DNA of 22,435 nucleotides from Candidatus Nanohaloarchaea archaeon (GCA_047617745.1 JBLGBN010000014.1:1-22435), one strand, 5' to 3'. Shown: positions 1-8,417, counted from the first letter of the stretch. Notes: generated by a model from the sequence alone, not told the origin. Numbers and translations: made by a program.

Positions 1-144
1 AGCCCCGAGAGGGATTTGAACCCTCGATCTGTCCCTTTCTTGCCCTTTTTGTTTGGAAGCCACCGAAGTGGTTTATCGCGTGCCGCACTGTGCGACAGCA
101 GGCGTTACAAGGGGACCGCTCTAGCCAGACTGAGCCATCGAGGC
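1..144 (-). tRNA. tRNA-Thr(UGU) with 69-nt intron at canonical 37/38 position (intron 37..105)
   Basis: Minus strand folds as acceptor GCCTCGA/TCGGGGC plus U73, D arm GCTC/GAGC, anticodon stem GTCCC/GGGAC, anticodon TGT (107-109), T arm GAGGG-TTCAAAT-CCCTC. BHB central helix CUUG/CAAG with UA|A and AA|A bulges. 3' end is at the window edge. Confidence 0.95.
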
Positions 145-235
145 ATCTGGTATTTAGGAAAAGTTGGTGAAGAGTTAAATAAGGTTGGAGTAGGGGCCTG
201 TTTGATATAGTTTGTTTCCTGTTTTTCCCGATAGG

Positions 236-847
236 ATGACTGTGATTAAAGGAGAGTTGAATGATCCGAATTCCGGCCAGGTTTCCGTTTCTACTGATTT
301 TGAGACTGCGGTTGTCGGAGATCTGGATCGATACTGTGATGACCTGGAGTACATGGAGGTTGACGGCTTGAGATTGGGAAGTCCTGTGGAAATTGAGTTC
401 TTGGACAGCTCTGTAAGCTTCAGGAATGTACCGGTAGATAATGTGTCACATTACAGGTACTCCGGCAGGGATTACAGCCCGGATTTCTTTGATGATATTA
501 TTATGGAGACTGAGTCTATGAGGAGGGCTCCTTCAGTTGTTGAATCAGGGAATGGCTACGAGGTGGTTGACGGCAACTCCTATTTCGAGGCCTACCAGGA
601 GACTCGAAACGAGAACAGTATCTGGGTGAGAGTGCACGACTACAGTCCTGAAGAGGCGCTGGATCATTTCCTGGACGATCATTTTCCATCTAACAAACCT
701 GAACTTGAGTCGGGAAGCTGGTACAGTGATGAGGAGATTGACAGGACACTGGAGAATCTTTACGGCGATCTCGGCGGAGAGATAAGTCTGTCGGAACTGG
801 AGGAATCAGAGAGAATAGGTTTTAACGTGGATAGGATGAGATGGTAA
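236..847 (+). CDS. ParB/Srx-like N-terminal domain protein, apparently degenerate
   Basis: PSVVESGNGYEVVDGNSYFEAY...IWVRV resembles the ParBc P.V...YE.VDG.RR..A motif, but the Arg pair is missing. ATG 236 is about 27 nt after TTTGATATA; the ORF track start at 212 is TTG. Confidence 0.55.
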   Translation: MTVIKGELNDPNSGQVSVSTDFETAVVGDLDRYCDDLEYMEVDGLRLGSPVEIEFLDSSVSFRNVPVDNVSHYRYSGRDYSPDFFDDIIMETESMRRAPSVVESGNGYEVVDGNSYFEAYQETRNENSIWVRVHDYSPEEALDHFLDDHFPSNKPELESGSWYSDEEIDRTLENLYGDLGGEISLSELEESERIGFNVDRMRW

Positions 848-857
848 AAATGAAGGT

Positions 858-1169
858 TTAAGTTACATCGACATCTGCATCGTCTACGTCTGCGTCCGGA
901 CCTCTCTGCTTGATTTCCTTCTTCTTGGCGTCCTTGATCCTGTTGACATTGATGCTTCTTGTGCATTCAGGGCATTCGATCCACCAAGGTCGTTGTCCTA
1001 GTTCCTGTTCGCCGTCCCATTCGTTTCCGCAGTAAGGGCATTCGATCTCGTAGAAGTATTTCTCGTTGTCGTAGGAGAACATTTTAACTCTCCCAGTCTT
1101 CTCTCCTTCGTCATTTTCCACTTCTCTGTTGGTGACGTACTCCGCCCTTTCGTAGTCAATTTCTTTCAT
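858..1169 (-). CDS. small zinc-ribbon protein (CPYC...CPEC)
   Basis: Two CPxC motifs and an acidic tail; TATA-like TTTAAA about 30 nt upstream. Confidence 0.75.
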   Translation of the reverse strand: MKEIDYERAEYVTNREVENDEGEKTGRVKMFSYDNEKYFYEIECPYCGNEWDGEQELGQRPWWIECPECTRSINVNRIKDAKKKEIKQRGPDADVDDADVDVT

Positions 1170-1257
1170 ACTATCATCATTAAGACTTGGTTAAAGTTTA
1201 AATGTTTTCCAGAAACTGGTGGTCCAGTATCTTTCCGCTCTGGAAAACCTGTTTTTT

Positions 1258-1740
1258 CTAGGTAAGCATTTCGCGGTAGATCAGTTCTCTTTCTTCTTCG
1301 TCCGGCATCTCTATCTCGATCTTTTCCGTACCTTCGATATCCGAGATTGATTTCTCTATTCCCAGCTCTTCTACTGGTTCGTCGGATTTGATTTTCTTGA
1401 TATCAGGGTTGTATTTTCTCAGCTGTTTCAGATCCCATTTCCTGTCCGTTTCCAGGACCACGAGATTCCATCCCTGGACCGTCGCCAGGAAGGCTCGAAC
1501 TGCATCCTCCCTGCTCTCCAGCCGGGTGTATGCCAGCTCGTCGACCGGCTCTCCTTTCAGACCTTTGTATGTCTCTTCTTCTACCTCAAAGCTTTCGATT
1601 CCCGGAACTCTCTCGAGGACTTCTTTTTCCTCTACTTCAGCTTCGATTATATCTCCATTTACCTCCGGGTTTTCAACCCGTTTCTCAAGGTTCTCTCTAA
1701 GCTGTTCGATATCCCGGATTGGCGTGATTTTTGCTTTCAT
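1258..1740 (-). CDS. acidic hypothetical protein
   Basis: 160-aa Glu-rich ORF typical of this proteome, divergent from 1793. No motif recognised. Confidence 0.75.
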   Translation of the reverse strand: MKAKITPIRDIEQLRENLEKRVENPEVNGDIIEAEVEEKEVLERVPGIESFEVEEETYKGLKGEPVDELAYTRLESREDAVRAFLATVQGWNLVVLETDRKWDLKQLRKYNPDIKKIKSDEPVEELGIEKSISDIEGTEKIEIEMPDEEERELIYREMLT

Positions 1741-1792
1741 AACCACTCATTGTTCACAAAGGCTTTTATTTGGAGTTCGAGAAGTCTACTGT

Positions 1793-2116
1793 ATGGGACT
1801 TTTCGATGATACATCATCCAGCAAGAAAGGAGAGGTAAGAATAGGAGTTCCGGATGAGGATAAAGATGACTCGAAGCTGAGAAGTGAGGTTGAGTCAAAA
1901 ATAGATGCGGCAACAGGTTCATCAGATAGGAGTTCGAAATCCTCGAGTAATGTTTCAAGGAAGGAGCTCCACCGACAGAACGAGAGAATAATTGAACTAC
2001 TGGAGAAACTTGTTGATGAGGGAAAAACAGATACAGGTAGCAGGGTTACAGATAGAACTACGGATCGAAATGATGATGATGACGGTATGAGAGGTGGAAT
2101 GGATGAGCTATTATGA
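1793..2116 (+). CDS. low-complexity acidic protein with QNERIIELLE coiled-coil motif
   Basis: ATG 1793 (MGLFDD) is about 26 nt after TTTTATT. The upstream part of the 242-aa ORF is antisense shadow of 1258..1740. Confidence 0.75.
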   Translation: MGLFDDTSSSKKGEVRIGVPDEDKDDSKLRSEVESKIDAATGSSDRSSKSSSNVSRKELHRQNERIIELLEKLVDEGKTDTGSRVTDRTTDRNDDDDGMRGGMDELL

Positions 2117-2477
2117 TAACGTAAAGGACAATGTCAAGAACAACAAATCCGGTTCAAGTTCAGGAGGCGGCGCGCCGTCCTTCGATACGCTGAAAGAAGC
2201 GGCTGAAGAAACCTCGGAAGAAGAGGATGAAAACGAGGGAGATGATACGCCTATTGAAGTGCTTGAGGAAGGCGGGTTACGTGAACAGAAAACCTCGAGC
2301 CAGAAAAAAAGTTCTTCCAAGGAACAGAATCAGTCTCGTTCCGTCGAGAAAAGTAATGAAGGTAACCAGCGTCAGAAAGCTGAGGCTGTTGATTTCTCCG
2401 GCCTGGAGTCCAAACTGGACAGGATTATCGAGCAGAACGACAGGATGATTGAGATCCTGGAAAGCTTTGCGTCTTAA
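2103..2477 (+). CDS. low-complexity acidic protein with C-terminal QNDRMIEILE coiled-coil motif
   Basis: SD GAGGTG at 2091-2096, ATG 2103 (MSYYDNVK); overlaps the previous stop, suggesting translational coupling. Confidence 0.75.
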   Translation: MSYYDNVKDNVKNNKSGSSSGGGAPSFDTLKEAAEETSEEEDENEGDDTPIEVLEEGGLREQKTSSQKKSSSKEQNQSRSVEKSNEGNQRQKAEAVDFSGLESKLDRIIEQNDRMIEILESFAS

Positions 2478-2749
2478 ACTACTTTGACGTTAATCTTTCT
2501 TCTTCCTTCATCCGTACTCTGCATTTCCTGTCTTAGTTCCAGTTCAACTGAGAGCTTCTTGTAAGTATCTCCTTCCTTGAACTCTAGTTCGACCCGGTTG
2601 TCCTTGTTGGGTGTAATCTGTACTTCCTCTCTGCCCTTGAAGCTCAGTCCTACCTCTCCTTCTCTGAGCTTATCGGCGAAATTGTCAAGGAAGTTTGCGA
2701 GTTCATCGTTGGAAAATTCAAAGTCGAGTTCTACCTCTTCGCTTGCCAT
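2474..2749 (-). CDS. amphi-Trp domain-like protein
   Basis: ELANFLDNFADKLREGEV.L....V.I.P....ELEF......LSVELEL matches the amphi-Trp domain layout, but the namesake Trp is Leu. Confidence 0.65.
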   Translation of the reverse strand: MASEEVELDFEFSNDELANFLDNFADKLREGEVGLSFKGREEVQITPNKDNRVELEFKEGDTYKKLSVELELRQEMQSTDEGRRKINVKVV

Positions 2750-2799
2750 AGGTAATAAAGAAAGAGAAAAGGTTTTATTTTTTAGTGGTGGTTACGGAT

Positions 2800-3060
2800 T
2801 CAGTCCTTGTTCATCAGCTTCCTCGAAAGGAAGTGATCCTTCTCCTCAAGCTCTCTGATGGATTCAATTGCAAACAGGTAACCTGCTCCCATCATCACTA
2901 CTCCAAGAAACGCCGGCCCTAGATCCGCGTAAGTTGAAAGCGGGTAGAGACCGGAAAGCACTAGAAGCGTTCCCAGTACGAAAAGTGTGAAAGATACCGC
3001 AACCTCCTGGTTCGTTGTCATCTTCGGTAGTCCGAAACGGTCTTCAGCTTCTTCTGTCAT
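2800..3060 (-). CDS. small two-TM membrane protein
   Basis: Two hydrophobic segments (VAVSFTLFVLGTLLVLSGL; AFLGVVMMGAGYLFAI). ATGA overlap with the arvC stop. Confidence 0.8.
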   Translation of the reverse strand: MTEEAEDRFGLPKMTTNQEVAVSFTLFVLGTLLVLSGLYPLSTYADLGPAFLGVVMMGAGYLFAIESIRELEEKDHFLSRKLMNKD

Positions 3061-3446
3061 GTTATATCAAGCTCCGATGAGTCGATTTCCTTGCTTCCAG
3101 GGGTAAAAGCTGACGGTAAGTGGACGTGGTAGACGCCCTCTGTCTTCCGTATAACCAGCGGAACCTCCTTCAGCAGGCGTGAAACGTTTATGTTGTACAC
3201 GCCTTCTTCTTCGACTACAATACTGTCTAGGTCGAACTTGAACTTAATATTTTCCCTTTCCTCGAGGCCTTCCTCCACCATTTCCTCAATATCGGACCGG
3301 ACCTCTGATCTTTCATCTTCAGATAATTCCTCTTCCTCGGGCTCGTTCTCGTAGATGAAAAGCGATGACCCACATTCGCATCCGTCAATTAACTCTTCAG
3401 AATCGTCTTCGTATGTGTTACCGCAGTTCATACACCTGTGTGGCAT
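3057..3446 (-). CDS. arvC: OapC/ArvC zinc-ribbon protein (DUF2072)
   Basis: MPHRCMNCG...GCECGSSLF N-terminus and SIVVEEEGVYNINVSRLL...EGVYHVHL C-terminus; third gene after the GTPase and DUF2073. Confidence 0.85.
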   Translation of the reverse strand: MPHRCMNCGNTYEDDSEELIDGCECGSSLFIYENEPEEEELSEDERSEVRSDIEEMVEEGLEERENIKFKFDLDSIVVEEEGVYNINVSRLLKEVPLVIRKTEGVYHVHLPSAFTPGSKEIDSSELDIT

Positions 3447-3454
3447 TTTTCCAC

Positions 3455-3844
3455 CTAGGAGCTTTCTTCTTCCATTTTTGCGAGGAACGATACTGTGTCT
3501 TTCTCCTCTTTGATTTTCTCCATAACCCTCGAGTTTCCTACAATGGTGATGCCTCTCCTGTAGTCCTCGTTCAGAAATTTGTCGTACACAAAGTTGCGGG
3601 CTTTCTCCAGTCTAGTATTTTCGGAGTTCAGTCCCATAAATTCGACACCAGGGAAGTCGTCGTCAACCTCCTCCATAGATGTCTTGATCAGTTCTCTTTT
3701 CTCGCCGGGAGCCCAGGATTCTTCGAGTACCAGTACAGCGTTGTCCTTGACTTTTTCAAGCACTAGCTCTAGCTTCTCCTCGAACTCTACGCTGTTAAGC
3801 TTCTCCTTTGACAGGAACTCGATTGTTACTCCGTCTTCTCCCAT
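3455..3844 (-). CDS. arvB: OapB/ArvB protein (DUF2073)
   Basis: IEFLSKEKL...EKLELVLEKVKD..VLVLEE...LIKTSMEEVDDDFPGVEF...GITIVG matches DUF2073. Abuts the arvA stop. Confidence 0.85.
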   Translation of the reverse strand: MGEDGVTIEFLSKEKLNSVEFEEKLELVLEKVKDNAVLVLEESWAPGEKRELIKTSMEEVDDDFPGVEFMGLNSENTRLEKARNFVYDKFLNEDYRRGITIVGNSRVMEKIKEEKDTVSFLAKMEEESS

Positions 3845-4474
3845 TTAACTTAACCTTTCGATTATTTCCTCATAAAGTTTGTCGATGTTTGTGCCCTCTT
3901 TGGCGGAAATCTCCAGTACAGGGTGCTGAGGGAATGCATCCCGTACCCTCTCCGGCTCCGCATCCTCTAAATCTACCTTGTTCGCGAGAACCAGGATAGG
4001 AATGTCTTTGGCCTCAAGGTTTCCAATAATAGTTACGTTGACCTGCGTGTAAGGATCTTCTGTAGCGTCAAAAATTACAAGGCAGGCATCTACATCGTCG
4101 AGGTATTTGATTGCCTCGACAATTCCCTTGGTTGCTTCTTTTGCTCTACCTTTAGCCTCGTCTTCCTCCATTCCATGTTCTGTGAAATCCTTGAAGTCGA
4201 CGTTTGTAGAAATTCCTGGCATGTCGAGAAGATTGATTTCCAGCGATCGGCCGTCGTCAGCTTCTATAGTAACTTTTTCTTTTTTCTCGACTGCTCGAGT
4301 TTCGTGAGGTACCTCAGAAATATCGCTCATTTCTTCGCCTGTCAGATCCTTCGAGATCTGGTTAGCGAGCGTTGATTTACCTGCGTTTGGTGGTCCGTAA
4401 ATACCTATGCCGATATCGTCCTTTCCTGAATCGCTGAACAAGTTGTTGAAAAGTTCCTTCAAACGCTTTATCAT
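3845..4474 (-). CDS. arvA: OapA/ArvA Era-like small GTPase
   Basis: G1 GPPNAGKS, G2 PHETR, G3 DMPG, G4 NKVD, G5 ISAK; family motifs RAKEATKGIVEAIKYL and DPYTQVN; N-terminal amphipathic helix MIKRLKELFNNLFS. Start chosen at ATG 4474, downstream of the TATA at about 4510-4517. Confidence 0.9.
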   Translation of the reverse strand: MIKRLKELFNNLFSDSGKDDIGIGIYGPPNAGKSTLANQISKDLTGEEMSDISEVPHETRAVEKKEKVTIEADDGRSLEINLLDMPGISTNVDFKDFTEHGMEEDEAKGRAKEATKGIVEAIKYLDDVDACLVIFDATEDPYTQVNVTIIGNLEAKDIPILVLANKVDLEDAEPERVRDAFPQHPVLEISAKEGTNIDKLYEEIIERLS

Positions 4475-4596
4475 GTTGACACCAGTTAATACTAAATCCG
4501 TTCCATAGGTATAAAAACTATTTGCCTTCCTTTCAGCCATGGAACAGTCCGGAATCCTGATACTTTTTAATTAAAGTTTGGAACAAAAACTCCAGT

Positions 4597-5031
4597 GTGA
4601 AAACTGAAAAAGGCGTTATAATAATAGCGTACAAGGATCGGATGAAGCCCCGGTTCGTGGTTCTCAACCGCTCCAAGAACTGGGAGGGCTGGGAACTGCC
4701 TAAAGGCCACCTCGAAGATGATGATTATCGGGAAACCGTTAAACTCGAGCTGAAAGAGGAAGCAGGAATCATCGAGGAGCATATCAAGGAGATATCCGAT
4801 CTTGATCACATAGTTGAGTGGACATTCGAGGACGACGGCGAGGAAATCCGGAGAGAGTACAGCGCATTTATTGTCGAGTTGAGCGAAGACGCTTTTATCG
4901 ATGTCAACGCCAACCCTCACGATGAACACGATCAAGGTTTCTTCTTCCGGGAAGAAGATGCAAAGTCTCTTCTAACCTACGACAACAATATCAAGGTTCT
5001 AGAGAAAGCTATTGAAGAGATCGAAAACTGA
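4597..5031 (+). CDS. Nudix hydrolase (Ap4A hydrolase-like)
   Basis: WELPKGHLE...ELKEEAGI Nudix box and a downstream EH motif. GTG start about 27 nt after TTTTTAATTAAA. Confidence 0.85.
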   Translation: MKTEKGVIIIAYKDRMKPRFVVLNRSKNWEGWELPKGHLEDDDYRETVKLELKEEAGIIEEHIKEISDLDHIVEWTFEDDGEEIRREYSAFIVELSEDAFIDVNANPHDEHDQGFFFREEDAKSLLTYDNNIKVLEKAIEEIEN

Positions 5032-5082
5032 TTCACCAGAGTTTTAACCTTCGACGACAATTCTTTTTTAGGTGAAATAAAA

Positions 5083-5331
5083 ATGACACAGCCGGAACAG
5101 ATGCTGGAAGTATACCAGTTTGAAGGATGCCCTTACTGCTCAAAAGTAAGATCAAAGCTAACAGAACTTGGTATCGACTTTATAGCAAGACAGGTCGACA
5201 AAAATGACCGGTCAAGAGTACAAGAAGTATCAGGACAGACTAATGTTCCAGTCCTGGTCGATCCAAACACCGATACTGTCATGCCGGAGAGCGATGATAT
5301 CGTGGAATATCTGGAAGAGCACTACGGGTAG
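5083..5331 (+). CDS. glutaredoxin-family protein
   Basis: CPYC active site, VPVL cis-Pro motif, ESDDIVEYL; SD AGGTGA upstream. Confidence 0.92.
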   Translation: MTQPEQMLEVYQFEGCPYCSKVRSKLTELGIDFIARQVDKNDRSRVQEVSGQTNVPVLVDPNTDTVMPESDDIVEYLEEHYG

Positions 5332-5879
5332 AAGTTCTCTTCAAGAAAAAGATCAATAATTTCTTCATATTCTTCATTTATTTCATATCGTTCAGTTCCT
5401 GTAGGAGTCAATCCCTGTGAGACTATTTCCTCTCCCATCATGTTACCTAACCTACCTGTTTCTGATACCTCTTTTGCAGCATCAACTGCTTGCCCTTCAG
5501 TGAAACTTCCGCTAGTCTGTTTGAACAGTTCGTAAAGAACGCTCAGTTTGCCTTCAGGATATATTATTGTTTCCGATTCTGCCTCTAAACCTATTTCCTC
5601 AAGGTAATCCTGATTCTTTTCTGCCTGTTCCTTTTTTCTCCCGATCATGCTTTCAATTGTGTCTGGTGAGACTGAGTCTGTCACCCCGACTTCTATATTG
5701 ACAAGCTGTCCTTCGATATATGTGTCCTCAAGTAGGATATCTACACGGCCCTCTGCGTTATGCTCTTCCTGAGGTACATCTCTAATTATTCCGGGGTAAA
5801 TTTCATTGACAGCTTTTACCGTGTATCCTTCTTCAGAATAGTTCTGGCTTACTTCTTCAAGAATATCTTCTCTTGTCAT
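5322..5879 (-). CDS. hypothetical protein, possible degenerate PD-(D/E)xK fold
   Basis: GRVDILLE...VNIEVG resembles the D...ExK pattern with Lys replaced by Gly; AT-richer codons. Confidence 0.5.
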   Translation of the reverse strand: MTREDILEEVSQNYSEEGYTVKAVNEIYPGIIRDVPQEEHNAEGRVDILLEDTYIEGQLVNIEVGVTDSVSPDTIESMIGRKKEQAEKNQDYLEEIGLEAESETIIYPEGKLSVLYELFKQTSGSFTEGQAVDAAKEVSETGRLGNMMGEEIVSQGLTPTGTERYEINEEYEEIIDLFLEENFYP

Positions 5880-5894
5880 ATTGGTTTCTCCATG

Positions 5895-6305
5895 TTAGTC
5901 CAGCTCTCTTTCCGCCGCTTCCTGTAGATCTTCGTATGTCATTTCAAGATCTTTTTTCGGTGAGAGGTCTTCAAGGTAATCTGTTACCTTGTCCGCTCCG
6001 TCTATACTCGATTCGCACAGTTCATCTTTCGCTCCTTCAGAGATGTTCAGGAGCCGGTTGTACGCCTCTTCTACATTGTCTTCCTTATCCTGTAGTAGAA
6101 GTTTCTCCGCCTGCGCAATGTCCCATGCCGCTGCTGCATAGTCGCTCTCCTCATTAGTTCCATCCATCAGTTGCTGGTAAGATTCCTGCAGATTTGTGGC
6201 GGCTTCAATAAAATTTTCTCTCTGAGGTACACTAGCTGTAGATTCTAGGACGATTTTCTGGCTATTTTCGATACCTTCAATCGCCTTGTCGACTACCTCG
6301 TTCAT
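5895..6305 (-). CDS. acidic helical hypothetical protein
   Basis: 136-aa ORF; TTTAAA about 25 nt upstream of the ATG. Confidence 0.7.
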   Translation of the reverse strand: MNEVVDKAIEGIENSQKIVLESTASVPQRENFIEAATNLQESYQQLMDGTNEESDYAAAAWDIAQAEKLLLQDKEDNVEEAYNRLLNISEGAKDELCESSIDGADKVTDYLEDLSPKKDLEMTYEDLQEAAERELD

Positions 6306-6407
6306 AGAATATAATTAGACTTCCAGGTTTAAATGTGTTACCGAAAAGTGACAACTAAATGCAGAAGTGTGTCCTGCTTGATTAAATTCAATGGCAAGTA
6401 AGAAAGA

Positions 6408-6482
6408 TGGACCGGCCCAGATTTGAACTGGGGATCTCCACGTTATCAGCGTGGCGCTATAACCTGGCTAAGCTACCGGTCC
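6408..6482 (-). tRNA. tRNA-Ile(GAU), intronless, CCA not encoded
   Basis: Acceptor GGACCGG/CCGGTCC plus A73; anticodon arm CCACG-CTGATAA-CGTGG; T arm CCCAG-TTCAAAT-CTGGG. Confidence 0.97.
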
Positions 6483-6572
6483 TCGCTGTGTAGAATTTTT
6501 AGTTGGGTAAGGGTTTTTAATGCATCCCTCGGTGTCGATAGTTTTTAACCCAATCAATTATAAACCGTTGCT

Positions 6573-7055
6573 GTGAGTCTAGAGCAGGAGTACCGCAAGG
6601 ACGTTGAGAAGCTAGGAGAGTCGATGGAAGACGTTGTTTCCAGACATAGAGCTTCCCAGATAAAGTCCTTTCTTGACCACATCCTGCCGATCGCACTGCT
6701 TTCACTAACCTTTGTTCTGATCTTCAGCCTGGCGGTCCCGGTTACAGATCAGATGGCGGTGTATATCAACTACCTGAACTGGGGCGTGGTTCTCTACTTC
6801 GCGTCCAGGCTTGCTGTGGAACTCAGGCTTTCTGACCACCGCGAACAGTTTGTACAGAACCATTTTCTGGACTTCTTACTTGTCATACCGGCTTTCTCAG
6901 TTCTAAAGCAGGTTCAGCTAGTGGAGGCAATTGCAGAGTTCGAACTGTTTGAGGAAGAGAACGCTATGATATCTGCCACCTTTTTCAAAGAAGCAGGTAT
7001 AGCGGCTCAGGCCACTAAAATAACGAGAATGTTGAAAAGAAGTATAGGTCTTTAG
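6573..7055 (+). CDS. membrane protein resembling an ion-channel voltage-sensor (S1-S4-like) region with no pore domain
   Basis: Three hydrophobic segments, QFVQNHFLDFLLVIP (S3-like W/FLDLL.V.P motif) and basic end KITRMLKR. Start uncertain (GTG 6573 or a downstream ATG). Confidence 0.55.
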   Translation: MSLEQEYRKDVEKLGESMEDVVSRHRASQIKSFLDHILPIALLSLTFVLIFSLAVPVTDQMAVYINYLNWGVVLYFASRLAVELRLSDHREQFVQNHFLDFLLVIPAFSVLKQVQLVEAIAEFELFEEENAMISATFFKEAGIAAQATKITRMLKRSIGL

Positions 7056-7258
7056 TGGGCTCGACGGGATTTGAACCCGCGACTACCGGCTAGCTCTGCG
7101 CAATCATGAGCGGTTAATTTTGGAAGCCATAGTTTATGGCTTGTTGCCGCATCACTTCGTGATGCTTTGAGCAGCATCCTTTAAGGAAGCTGCGGCGTCC
7201 CGTTCGAGCGTAACCACGCGTAAAAGGCCGGTGCTCTGCCAGACTGAGCTACGAGCCC
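7056..7258 (-). tRNA. tRNA-Lys(UUU) with 129-nt intron at 37/38 (intron 7092..7220)
   Basis: Acceptor GGGCTCG/CGAGCCC plus A73; anticodon stem CCGGC/GCCGG; anticodon TTT; T arm GCGGG-TTCAAAT-CCCGT. Strict BHB: CUUU/AGAG helix, UA|C and CU|A bulges, outer helix GCGUGGUUA/UGAUUGCGC. Confidence 0.95.
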
Positions 7259-7263
7259 ATTTT

Positions 7264-7485
7264 TTACTCGGTTTCCTGTTCGAATTCTCCGTACTGAATG
7301 TTTTCAACCGAGCTGTACGGAATGAATACTTTCTCCGCCTTGATTCTGTGTGCGGTTTCTTCTTCGGTCATGATGTAAGGTTCTTCTGCTTCTATTCCTC
7401 TGTCCTGTCTGGTTAGTTGATCAGTATCTTTAAGCAGAAAGTCGCCTGATTTGCTCAGGATTATGACCGAGTACTCTTCTCCCAT
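7264..7485 (-). CDS. small hypothetical protein, possibly Sm-like/beta-barrel fold
   Basis: Starts 2 nt after the rpl37e stop; VFIPYSSVENIQ resembles the Sm2/PH-type strand motif. Confidence 0.65.
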   Translation of the reverse strand: MGEEYSVIILSKSGDFLLKDTDQLTRQDRGIEAEEPYIMTEEETAHRIKAEKVFIPYSSVENIQYGEFEQETE

Positions 7486-7487
7486 TG

Positions 7488-7649
7488 TTACTGTTTCCTA
7501 GGCTTTGCCTTGTCAAAGTCGTTTCGCTTCGAGGTCTTTCCGAATCCGCATGATGCGCATTCTTTCTTTCTCAGGTGGAAAGACTTCTCTCCGCATCTCC
7601 GGCATTTGCCGTGAGATTTCTTGTTTCGTTTTCCTTTGTTTAGTCCCAT
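7488..7649 (-). CDS. rpl37e: 50S ribosomal protein L37e (absent from the ORF track, 53 aa)
   Basis: Manual translation [53 protein letters not shown], with CRRCG and CASCGF zinc-finger motifs; canonical position after lsm; SD GAGGT. Confidence 0.96.
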
Positions 7650-7664
7650 GATAATTTACCTCTA

Positions 7665-7898
7665 TTATTCAGGGCTGACAAGTATTACGTTGTCACCACG
7701 GATAATTAGTTTTCCGTAGTCTGTCTGTCCTCCGTCTTCAGTTACTGAAGCGTCTTCAAGCCACATGTTTAGGTGAAGGTCAAATGCTTTCAGGTTACCT
7801 GAAACTGTCTGTCCTCCTTTTAGTTTTGCTATTACTCTGTCACCTTTTGCAGTATCTAGTACGTCCAAAGGTCTTTTGCCACTGTCATCGTTTCCCAT
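7665..7898 (-). CDS. lsm: Sm-like archaeal protein (SmAP/Lsm)
   Basis: RPLDVL...G.LKAFDLHLNMWLEDA (Sm1) and IIRGDNVILVSP (Sm2). Confidence 0.96.
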   Translation of the reverse strand: MGNDDSGKRPLDVLDTAKGDRVIAKLKGGQTVSGNLKAFDLHLNMWLEDASVTEDGGQTDYGKLIIRGDNVILVSPE

Positions 7899-8039
7899 AA
7901 AAACTGTACACCTTGTAAACCAAAAATCTTCGACAAGTTATATAAACCTACCGCGGATTCGCTGAAGACAGGTTCTTTACCCTGTAAGACCAGCAACGTC
8001 ACAGTACTGTTTATAAAATTTCATCCACAGCCAAGTAAT

Positions 8040-8417
8040 ATGGCAATCTGGCACAAACAGTCTGGAAGAAAGAAAACTGGTGGAAGAACCAGGAGAAACA
8101 GGAAATCCAAGAAACATGAACTAGGTTCAGAGTTTTCAGAACCTGAGAAAGGGGAGAAAAGAATAGAGAAGAAAAGGACTAGAGGCGGCAACCACAAGAA
8201 TGTCGTCAGTAGAGCCGAAGAGATCAACGTCGCAGTAGAAGGCGAGGTAAAGAACGCTGAGATTGAATCGGTTGAAGACAACCCGGCTAACCCTAACTTT
8301 GTACGGAGATCCCTTCTAACCAAAGGAGCTGTAGTTCAGACATCAGAGGGCAAGGCAAGAATCACTTCCAGGCCTGGACAGGATGGAATGATTAACGGAG
8401 AAATTATTGACGAATAG
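8040..8417 (+). CDS. rps8e: 30S ribosomal protein S8e
   Basis: RKKTGGR, RTRGGN, NPANPNFVRRSLLTKGAVV, ARITSRPGQDG motifs; leaderless TTTATAAA at about 8010. Confidence 0.97.
   Translation: MAIWHKQSGRKKTGGRTRRNRKSKKHELGSEFSEPEKGEKRIEKKRTRGGNHKNVVSRAEEINVAVEGEVKNAEIESVEDNPANPNFVRRSLLTKGAVVQTSEGKARITSRPGQDGMINGEIIDE

Follow-up and report, generated by a model that had tools for sequence, protein, structure and literature searches.

The window analysed here, a stretch of 22,435 nucleotides, is the start of contig C14 of a Candidatus Nanohaloarchaea genome of 834 kb and 46% GC that encodes acidic proteins. We refer to this genome as G000; other G-labels denote genomes and L-labels denote loci fetched for comparison, and 70 genomes make up our class sample. 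The minus strand of the window, on which all window features given below lie, carries three tRNA genes, Thr(UGU), Ile(GAU) and Lys(UUU). The tRNA-Thr gene occupies 1-144 (exons 106-144 and 1-36; Rfam RF00005, 49.1 bits, and ARAGORN with introns), and the tRNA-Lys gene occupies 7056-7258 (exons 7221-7258 and 7056-7091; RF00005, 53.2 bits). As the first-pass annotation had proposed, with coordinates that we recovered, both genes are interrupted. Each carries a bulge-helix-bulge (BHB) intron at position 37/38, in which a central helix of 4 bp forms with positions 32-35, as read from the sequence: 69 nt at 37-105 in Thr, where CUUG (32-35) pairs with CAAG near the intron end, and 129 nt at 7092-7220 in Lys, where CUUU pairs with AGAG. 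The Thr central helix was not listed among the imperfect ones in our intron screen. Some 12 further intron-bearing tRNA genes lie elsewhere in G000, together with a gene for the splicing endonuclease (EndA; PF01974 match on C19, 94.3 bits, in a 212-aa open reading frame (ORF)). Both window introns begin with a copy of a structured sequence of about 50 nt, hereafter the element, which belongs to a family dispersed among DPANN archaea.

The likeness between the two introns had been described as four collinear blocks, with the Thr intron taken to be a deletion derivative of the Lys intron. The block letters read as given at all eight coordinates, and the similarity is greater than expected by chance: the best local alignment was matched by 7 of 5000 dinucleotide-shuffled pairs, and the 11-nt word common to both introns, which has exact matches in G000 only at these two sites, was equalled in 3 of 1000 shuffled pairs. 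The alignment of the blocks is another matter. In a family profile built from 27 copies, with the Lys intron excluded, the second hairpin and tail are rightly paired but the other three pairings are misaligned. The Lys ACGCC (7194-7198) corresponds to the end of the Thr linker, the Lys UGCUGCUC (7169-7176) falls within a nested module, and the Lys UGCGGCA (7145-7151) is the terminal repeat of that module plus one base. The profile aligned to the Lys intron in two separate pieces, intron positions 2-26 and 74-99. When the 49-nt module (7146-7196, both GC copies counted) was removed in silico, the whole profile was matched, from position 1 to 52, at 26.1 bits. The Lys intron is therefore an insertion derivative, an element with a 49-nt double hairpin nested within it, and the proposed direction of change is reversed. 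The two introns are alike because each starts with a copy of the element; the shared blocks are real, yet the introns are not a special RNA family. Indeed, the Lys intron is nearer to a Trp intron (L080, score 78) and a Thr intron (L036, 77.5) of other genomes than to its neighbor in the window (34.5).

In the Thr intron, the element copy spans 55-104 as hairpin 1, linker, hairpin 2 and tail, and matches our covariance model, R1, over its full length at 53.2 bits, this copy having been part of the training set. The loop of hairpin 1 (UGUCGC, 92-97) can form 6/6 pairs with GCGAUA at 74-79, and hairpin 2 (CCAC-UUCG-GUGG, 60-71) is indicated by both covariation and folding. The remaining tail (37-54) supplies the BHB partner and, by eye, resembles the 14-15-nt element-free Thr(UGU) introns of L043, L072 and L077. 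In the Lys intron, whose copy was absent from the training set, the element is split. Its 5' half (7195-7220, profile positions 2-26; covariance-model match 7185-7220) holds hairpin 1 with the common GUUACGCU loop and a linker ending in ACGC, and its 3' half (7122-7147, profile positions 25-52) holds hairpin 2 (7124-7142), also seen on folding. Between them lies the nested double-hairpin module (7146-7196), which consists of 49 nt plus a repeated GC and has a 6-nt terminal inverted repeat, GCCGCA/UGCGGC. The Lys tail (7092-7121) appears to pair back on the 5' arm of the element and to supply the BHB partner, judging from its letters. The same kind of nested module occurs in the introns L036 and L080 and in others, and related modules were found in L036, L080, L045 and L042. 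As a separate observation, another intron module was seen by eye in both orientations across introns (L052, L066, L058, L071, L036, L081 and L087), pointing to mobility of that module at the DNA level.

The fold is conserved across the family. Our alignment of 104 copies includes those used for training, and the model already contained 10 of the 19 pairs counted. Hairpin 1 was paired in 94.6% of cases with double changes at 7/7 pairs, three of which were not in the model. Hairpin 2 was paired in 93.0% with 6/6 pairs changed on both sides, so that the covariation first noticed between the Thr and Lys hairpins is genuine and family-wide. The covariation score was reached by none of 500 shuffles, and stems of at least 6 bp were present in 132 of 170 copies, as against about 45 with shuffled arms. 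The linker is short and ends in ACGC-AA, hairpin 1 often borrows the final 1-3 bases of the target for its outermost pairs, and the 5' hairpin is conserved while the 3' end of the element varies. Two subfamilies can be told apart. In one (65/104 copies, the Lys copy included), the loop reads UUACGC; the loop and ACGCAA are near-invariant, and a full pseudoknot is impossible in that register. In the other (39/104), the loop varies, and 22 of the 39 copies keep at least 5/6 pairs with the stretch after the linker while the letters differ. From this pattern of compensating letters we infer an H-type pseudoknot in the subfamily of the Thr copy. Minimum-free-energy folding gave z scores of -2.7 and -1.4 and recovered neither the BHB nor the pseudoknot. 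We also observed a sister variant with a UCACAA loop, outside model R1, which occupies L399-L401 and L405-L407 (the orthologues in G001-G003 of the G000 sites C11:18771 and C13:5976) and heads the Thr intron L068; in G002, downstream pairing of its loop would allow a pseudoknot.

The distribution of the element is wide and patchy. The similarity that linked the two window introns extends to 210 covariance-model matches in 43 of the 70 class genomes, and the core 11-mer gave 126 matches in 42/70 genomes against 6 for the reversed control. No match was found in the other 27, some of them near-complete; G002, a 98%-complete single contig of the same genus as G000, has no copy by the covariance model. 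G000 itself holds five copies: the two window introns, a Thr(CGU) intron and two non-intronic copies, one head-to-head with a start codon (C11:18771) and one head-to-head with tRNA-Ser (C13:5976). Beyond the class, matches occurred in 15 of 201 sampled genomes of a Woesearchaeota-type phylum (control, 0). An exact-pattern scan of GTDB returned at least 120 loci; among the matches listed, all 80 with titles were archaeal, mostly Nanohaloarchaea, Woesearchaeota and records titled Methanosarcinales, and the one record of the last kind that we tested (G070) groups with the Woesearchaeota-type phylum. A metagenome scan returned at least 123 loci. Plasmids gave no match and viral contigs gave 0 matches to the full pattern; four viral matches to a shorter pattern were chance words in coding DNA with the rest of the element absent. 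Rfam recognised only tRNA in the window at gathering level and returned nothing credible for sets of 8 and 12 element loci at E values up to 10 or 5. We found no published description of the element in the literature searched by listing, with subscription papers (including Fujishima 2010) and bioRxiv supplements outside our reach. We take it to be a real, probably mobile structured element of DPANN archaea that is apparently unpublished.

Element-headed introns were found with 16 anticodons overall, of which G000 has Thr(UGU), Thr(CGU) and Lys(UUU). When 40 relatives were searched with each window gene and the introns extracted, the orthologous introns were missing, short (14-15 nt) or made of other modules, while one 5' module recurred across different tRNAs. 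Within the genus, the Thr(UGU) genes of G002 and G003 are intron-free and the Lys introns are unrelated to that of the window. Intron tails mostly fit their own anticodon (119/159 with 4/4 central pairs); therefore it is usually only the 5' module that is shared. In three Trp introns (L096, L186 and L242), the element stands ahead of an intact C/D guide. Two further observations concern copies in unusual company. The copy before tRNA-Lys in L495 adjoins a sigma-70-family gene, with flanks matching the archaeal-type locus L347. In Woesearchaeota-type records, the element forms part of a longer non-coding repeat (~230 nt, multi-copy) whose ends form long pairings (L255, L258, L270, L272, L279, L314, L326, L344, L365, L316, L321 and L339), four of which were tested and had no Rfam match.

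We next consider where copies sit, using 133 distinct copies from the 140 loci fetched for the element, which represent part of the 210 matches and the 11-mer matches. Sixty are in tRNA anticodon introns, 59 sense and 1 antisense, and 73 are elsewhere: 19 behind a tRNA 3' end, 16 behind a tRNA-3'-like fragment (by a loose regular expression), 13 behind a stop codon (12 of these within -2 to +3 nt), 10 head-to-head with a tRNA 5' end, 1 head-to-head with a start codon, and 14 other or unclassified. L064 and L065, for example, have copies outside tRNA genes directly after stop codons. In Woesearchaeota-type records, the element also heads T-loop and D-loop introns and occurs antisense in T-loops. 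Of nine T-loop copies, eight close the BHB helix and continue the T-stem, and several are uniform at 82-86 nt. Many copies are accompanied by a duplication of the target. In 31 of 146 copies, a direct repeat of the target runs up to the 5' junction of the element, as against 2.5% of shuffled pairs and 1 for the inverted control, and these duplications vary in length from 14 to 45 nt. Genome and metagenome scans gave direct repeats in 52 of 211 copies; in 51 of these, the second repeat unit lay 41-179 nt downstream. Testing for a 3' complement of the 5' arm failed to tell intron copies from the rest, as 27 of 54 duplicated copies also passed. At a tRNA-Ser boundary, which is one of the two non-intron sites of G000, a neighboring module lying between the tRNA end and an older element is filled in G003 and G004 (7-nt repeat) and empty in G002.

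These contexts suggest a model of how the element spreads. We consider it probable that it is a non-coding mobile element of DPANN archaea, about 50 nt long and made of a hairpin, a linker and a hairpin. With similar confidence, we read both window introns as BHB introns of the ordinary kind that open with a ~50-nt copy of this non-autonomous element, which shelters where splicing removes it. The element would be copied in so that its 5' end abuts the boundary of a functional unit read on the same strand as itself: a tRNA 3' end, a stop codon, a 5' splice site, or a tRNA 5' end or start codon in reverse complement. Insertion would often leave a 14-45-nt direct repeat of the target behind the element, and the survivors would be those copies where the duplication rebuilds the gene or where EndA excises the element; because survival would depend on these routes, copies would pile up in tRNA introns. 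Other small double hairpins may then nest inside the element, as they appear to have done in the Lys intron. Movement seems to take place at the DNA level. Mobilization would act in trans, or fall to host repair, and start from a nick; the 3' end there would be joined to the element with a 1-3 nt overlap, with the conserved fold as the likely recognition signal for that step. As for the step itself, a protein-driven nick-and-copy reaction is a tentative proposal, and we hold a route through RNA and a reverse transcript, or recombination between look-alike gene ends, each to be somewhat less likely still. For Thr and Lys, the element probably entered pre-existing short introns, since the Thr tail resembles the 14-15-nt introns of relatives and the Trp copies precede an intact C/D guide.

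Our search for a mobilizing gene covered both the class and the neighborhoods of copies and yielded none. The 245 ORFs adjoining 173 copies formed only small housekeeping clusters. The first-pass annotation had suggested looking for a link to IS200/IS605 ends, and none appeared: the six Y1 loci of the class have no profile match alongside, and a single copy lies close to a tnpA with a hairpin of its own (L431). A long form bearing an ORF was also sought, and 1 of 52 duplicated copies had cargo. This copy (L456:2370-3260) consists of the 5' part of the element, a short-chain dehydrogenase gene and a 33-nt target repeat.

Several results weigh against a mobile element of this kind. Y1 transposase genes (4/70 class genomes) and reverse transcriptase genes (7/70), both lacking in G000, do not follow the distribution of the element, and no copy lies at their loci. 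Pfam searches of 116 neighboring ORFs gave two of mobile type, one tnpA and one tyrosine integrase, and no cognate transposase. A clear duplication is lacking in 115 of 146 copies, and neither window copy has one. The G001-G003 orthologues of the two G000 sites outside introns are not empty and hold the different two-hairpin variant, so that no clean empty site was seen for the element itself in this comparison; such occupied sites fit long residence with turnover, or a role for the host, as well as they fit repeated insertion. The excess of G-U pairs over A-C mismatches (108 versus 32) and the sense orientation of nearly all intron copies both fit selection on RNA, and the tight clustering at stop codons is unexplained by a purely DNA-level process. 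Finally, copies from kin are not independent, and of the 19 pairs counted, 10 were ones to which the covariation alignment (A2) had been fitted.

Other explanations must account for the same observations. Whole introns might be swapped between tRNA genes, by transposition of the kind described in Thermoproteales or by gene conversion through look-alike exons, with non-intron copies as spill-over. The range of anticodons with element-headed introns is what such swapping would produce, and G001 offers two specific hints of it: the tail of its Lys(UUU) intron (L005) is of the Thr(UGU) type and leaves one mismatch in the Lys central helix, and two unrelated sites of this genome share an identical variant where G000 has another, indicating homogenization within the genome. 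Yet more than half of the copies lie outside introns, duplications of target occur at gene ends and starts, and tails mostly fit their own anticodon. As a full explanation swapping is unlikely, although it likely contributes to the pattern without being the whole story. The likeness could in principle have been chance between two hairpin-rich introns, given that three of the four block pairings are not homologous and the pairwise p is about 0.001-0.003; the full-length profile match of the Lys intron after module removal and the matches in 43 genomes refute this, and we give it next to no weight.

The remaining alternatives give the element a function as RNA. It might be a processing signal useful to the host, for example a self-cleaving ribozyme not described before or a nuclease stop acting at its own 5' end, that would trim tRNA trailers, 5' splice sites and mRNA 3' ends. 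Sense copies do begin within a few nt of RNA ends, one subfamily shows pseudoknot covariation and the other a near-invariant loop and ACGCAA, G-U pairs are tolerated, and orthologous sites are occupied. On the other hand, 11 copies run antisense to the adjoining gene and further ones are antisense in T-loops, nested insertions disrupt hairpin 1 or the linker in many copies (the Lys intron included), no Rfam ribozyme model matched even at E up to 10, and 27 class genomes do without the element. A ribozyme or guide role fits the antisense copies and element-free lineages poorly, and we regard a processing signal as quite improbable. The first-pass annotation had offered a choice between a miniature element that spread between unrelated tRNA genes and a conserved circular RNA with a guide or protein-binding motif. 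The former has fared well and reaches further than supposed, to copies outside tRNA genes and in another DPANN phylum. The latter does not find support and seems to us more improbable again than a processing signal. Archaeal BHB introns are excised and some are functional, as the accessible part of a review describes for the Trp C/D guide (PMC4090602), this group does have genuine C/D-like guides in Trp, Met and some Lys introns, and structure is strongly conserved; however, over half of the copies never undergo excision, orthologous introns within the genus are missing or unrelated, and a box C/D screen for a D-type box behind a guide, with a C-type box downstream, confined to anticodon-loop targets, flagged 19 Trp, Met and Lys intron rows and neither window intron. 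Several candidates were set aside along the way. No Rfam model of a known self-cleaving ribozyme matched; pistol, twister and HDV ribozymes and IS608 ends were considered for their likeness and were rejected on unfitting helix order and empty Rfam results. A group I intron, which has a catalytic core, a U ahead of the 5' splice site and a terminal G, is not indicated: Rfam gave no match, the exons end in A and the introns end in A and U. Joints skipping exactly 69 and 129 nt at the window introns in contigs of four DNA runs had 85% likeness, may derive from other organisms and were not used.

A bolder version of the mobile-element model is that the element is a portable intron-maker, which would insert into either strand of tRNA genes. 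Where it landed close to a gene end, the gene would be restored by the target duplication; in inner loops, insertions would survive only as new BHB introns, with the element as the 5' end of the new intron and a 3' end that folds back on the junction. The T-loop and D-loop introns headed by the element in Woesearchaeota-type records and the intron-free Thr gene of close relatives are in keeping with this idea, which we put forward as a possibility of less than even chance. If it were true, the gain of introns by archaeal tRNA genes would have a visible agent, with a mechanism fitting no known transposase class.

Comparison with known systems, made here with the accessible parts of the papers cited, shows partial likeness to several. 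Haloquadratum walsbyi carries transposase-free repeats termed MITEs, PATEs and SMRs, and its SMRs and IS605-type elements make no target duplication (PMC3119063). Like these haloarchaeal repeats, the element is short, non-coding, palindrome-rich and multi-copy, with mutual nesting, and SMRs too are without a known mobilizing gene. Unlike them, it has long variable duplications, a pseudoknot subfamily and no terminal inverted repeats, and it targets gene boundaries and tRNA loops where they target other transposons. Specifically, the terminal inverted repeats that define a MITE are absent, the only terminal repeat being the 6-nt one of the nested Lys module, as is the fixed-length duplication made by a cognate transposase. 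The near-terminal palindromes of PATEs and IS200-IS605 elements are present as the two hairpins, while a lack of duplication and IS605-type ends are not.

In Thermoproteales, tRNA intron transposition has left related introns in different tRNA genes of one genome (Fujishima et al. 2010, summarised in PMC4090602; bioRxiv 10.64898/2026.10.13.758758). The accessible accounts give the same pattern of related introns across isotypes in one genome that we observed, with persistence limited by the BHB requirement. Our case differs in that the shared part is a defined 5' module, which is not confined to introns (73 of 133 copies), occurs elsewhere with target duplications and spans two DPANN phyla. 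In Caldiarchaeum, as far as the accessible text goes, tRNA gene disruption is ascribed to an inserting 1.8-kb element that encodes a recombinase (PMC3293823). That model resembles ours in coupling intron gain and duplicated tRNA fragments to an inserting element; the one described here is ~50 nt and encodes nothing. The tRNA-Trp box C/D guide intron (PMC4090602) is likewise a long structured archaeal intron at 37/38, in the portion available; the window introns lack C/D boxes with an anticodon-loop guide and are not conserved between orthologues. Among nanohaloarchaea, one genome paper reports 15 of 39 tRNAs as intron-bearing in one strain and, in its accessible part, does not describe intron content (PMC10266531), and the accessible part of a Nanobdellota preprint mentions an intron once.

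REP/BIME sequences, Rickettsia palindromic elements and the double-hairpin elements of fungal mitochondria are tiny hairpin repeats with tolerant sites and nested modules, and the nested module of the Lys intron is most like these. The element itself differs from REP/BIME-type repeats in its long target duplications and its exact placement at gene boundaries, and most of its carriers have no RAYT/Y1 gene.

The rest of the window and the survey add further observations. The tRNA-Ile(GAU) gene (6408-6482) has no intron here and has element-headed introns in relatives (L005, L014 and L015). Between tRNA-Lys and the gene at 8040, no ORF of at least 80 aa was listed in 7261-8020, and the stretch on the tRNA side resembles minus-strand coding DNA. 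Elsewhere in G000, tRNA-Leu(CAA) appears to have two introns, and Gln and Val genes with hairpin-module insertions in the D-arm are miscalled by ARAGORN (loci for these oddities: C30:5634-5819, C6:7965-8103, C6:8613-8720, C9:7673-7779 and C3:36520-36649). Several introns of the group contain C/D-type modules with a guide to the host's own anticodon loop and a predicted methylation at position 34, placed by the D+5 rule. These were found in Lys(UUU) (L012, L021, L022, L024, L026, L028, L029, L030 and L089), Met (L141, L147, L183, L197, L212 and, by eye, G000 C16:13861-14014) and Trp (L096, L186, L200 and L242); such guides are known for Trp, and those in Lys(UUU) and Met would be additional. 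In G018, the tRNA-Thr(UGU) gene (L050:1081-1506, plus strand; L101) has a 426-nt intron at 37/38 with a BHB-type tail that encodes an intact 133-aa PD-(D/E)XK endonuclease (PF11645, E 6.6e-42). Four more of the 70 genomes have free-standing homologues, one of them broken, just ahead of intron-bearing Thr(UGU) or Asn genes. The G018 case looks like a homing endonuclease within an archaeal tRNA BHB intron, of which we found no instance in the literature searched by listing.

The accessible part of a review calls the transposition mechanism of archaeal tRNA introns unknown (PMC4090602), and that of an Asgard preprint of October 2026 gives no general route by which tRNA introns arrive (bioRxiv 10.64898/2026.10.13.758758). 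The element is a concrete candidate for how these introns change, and perhaps for how they arise. Because a defined, searchable element heads introns of many anticodons and also stands outside them with duplications, the arrival step is open to comparison between strains and to work with cultivated nanohaloarchaea. In streamlined DPANN genomes, miniature elements nested within one another make up a layer that inflates tRNA introns and can hide tRNA genes from annotation.

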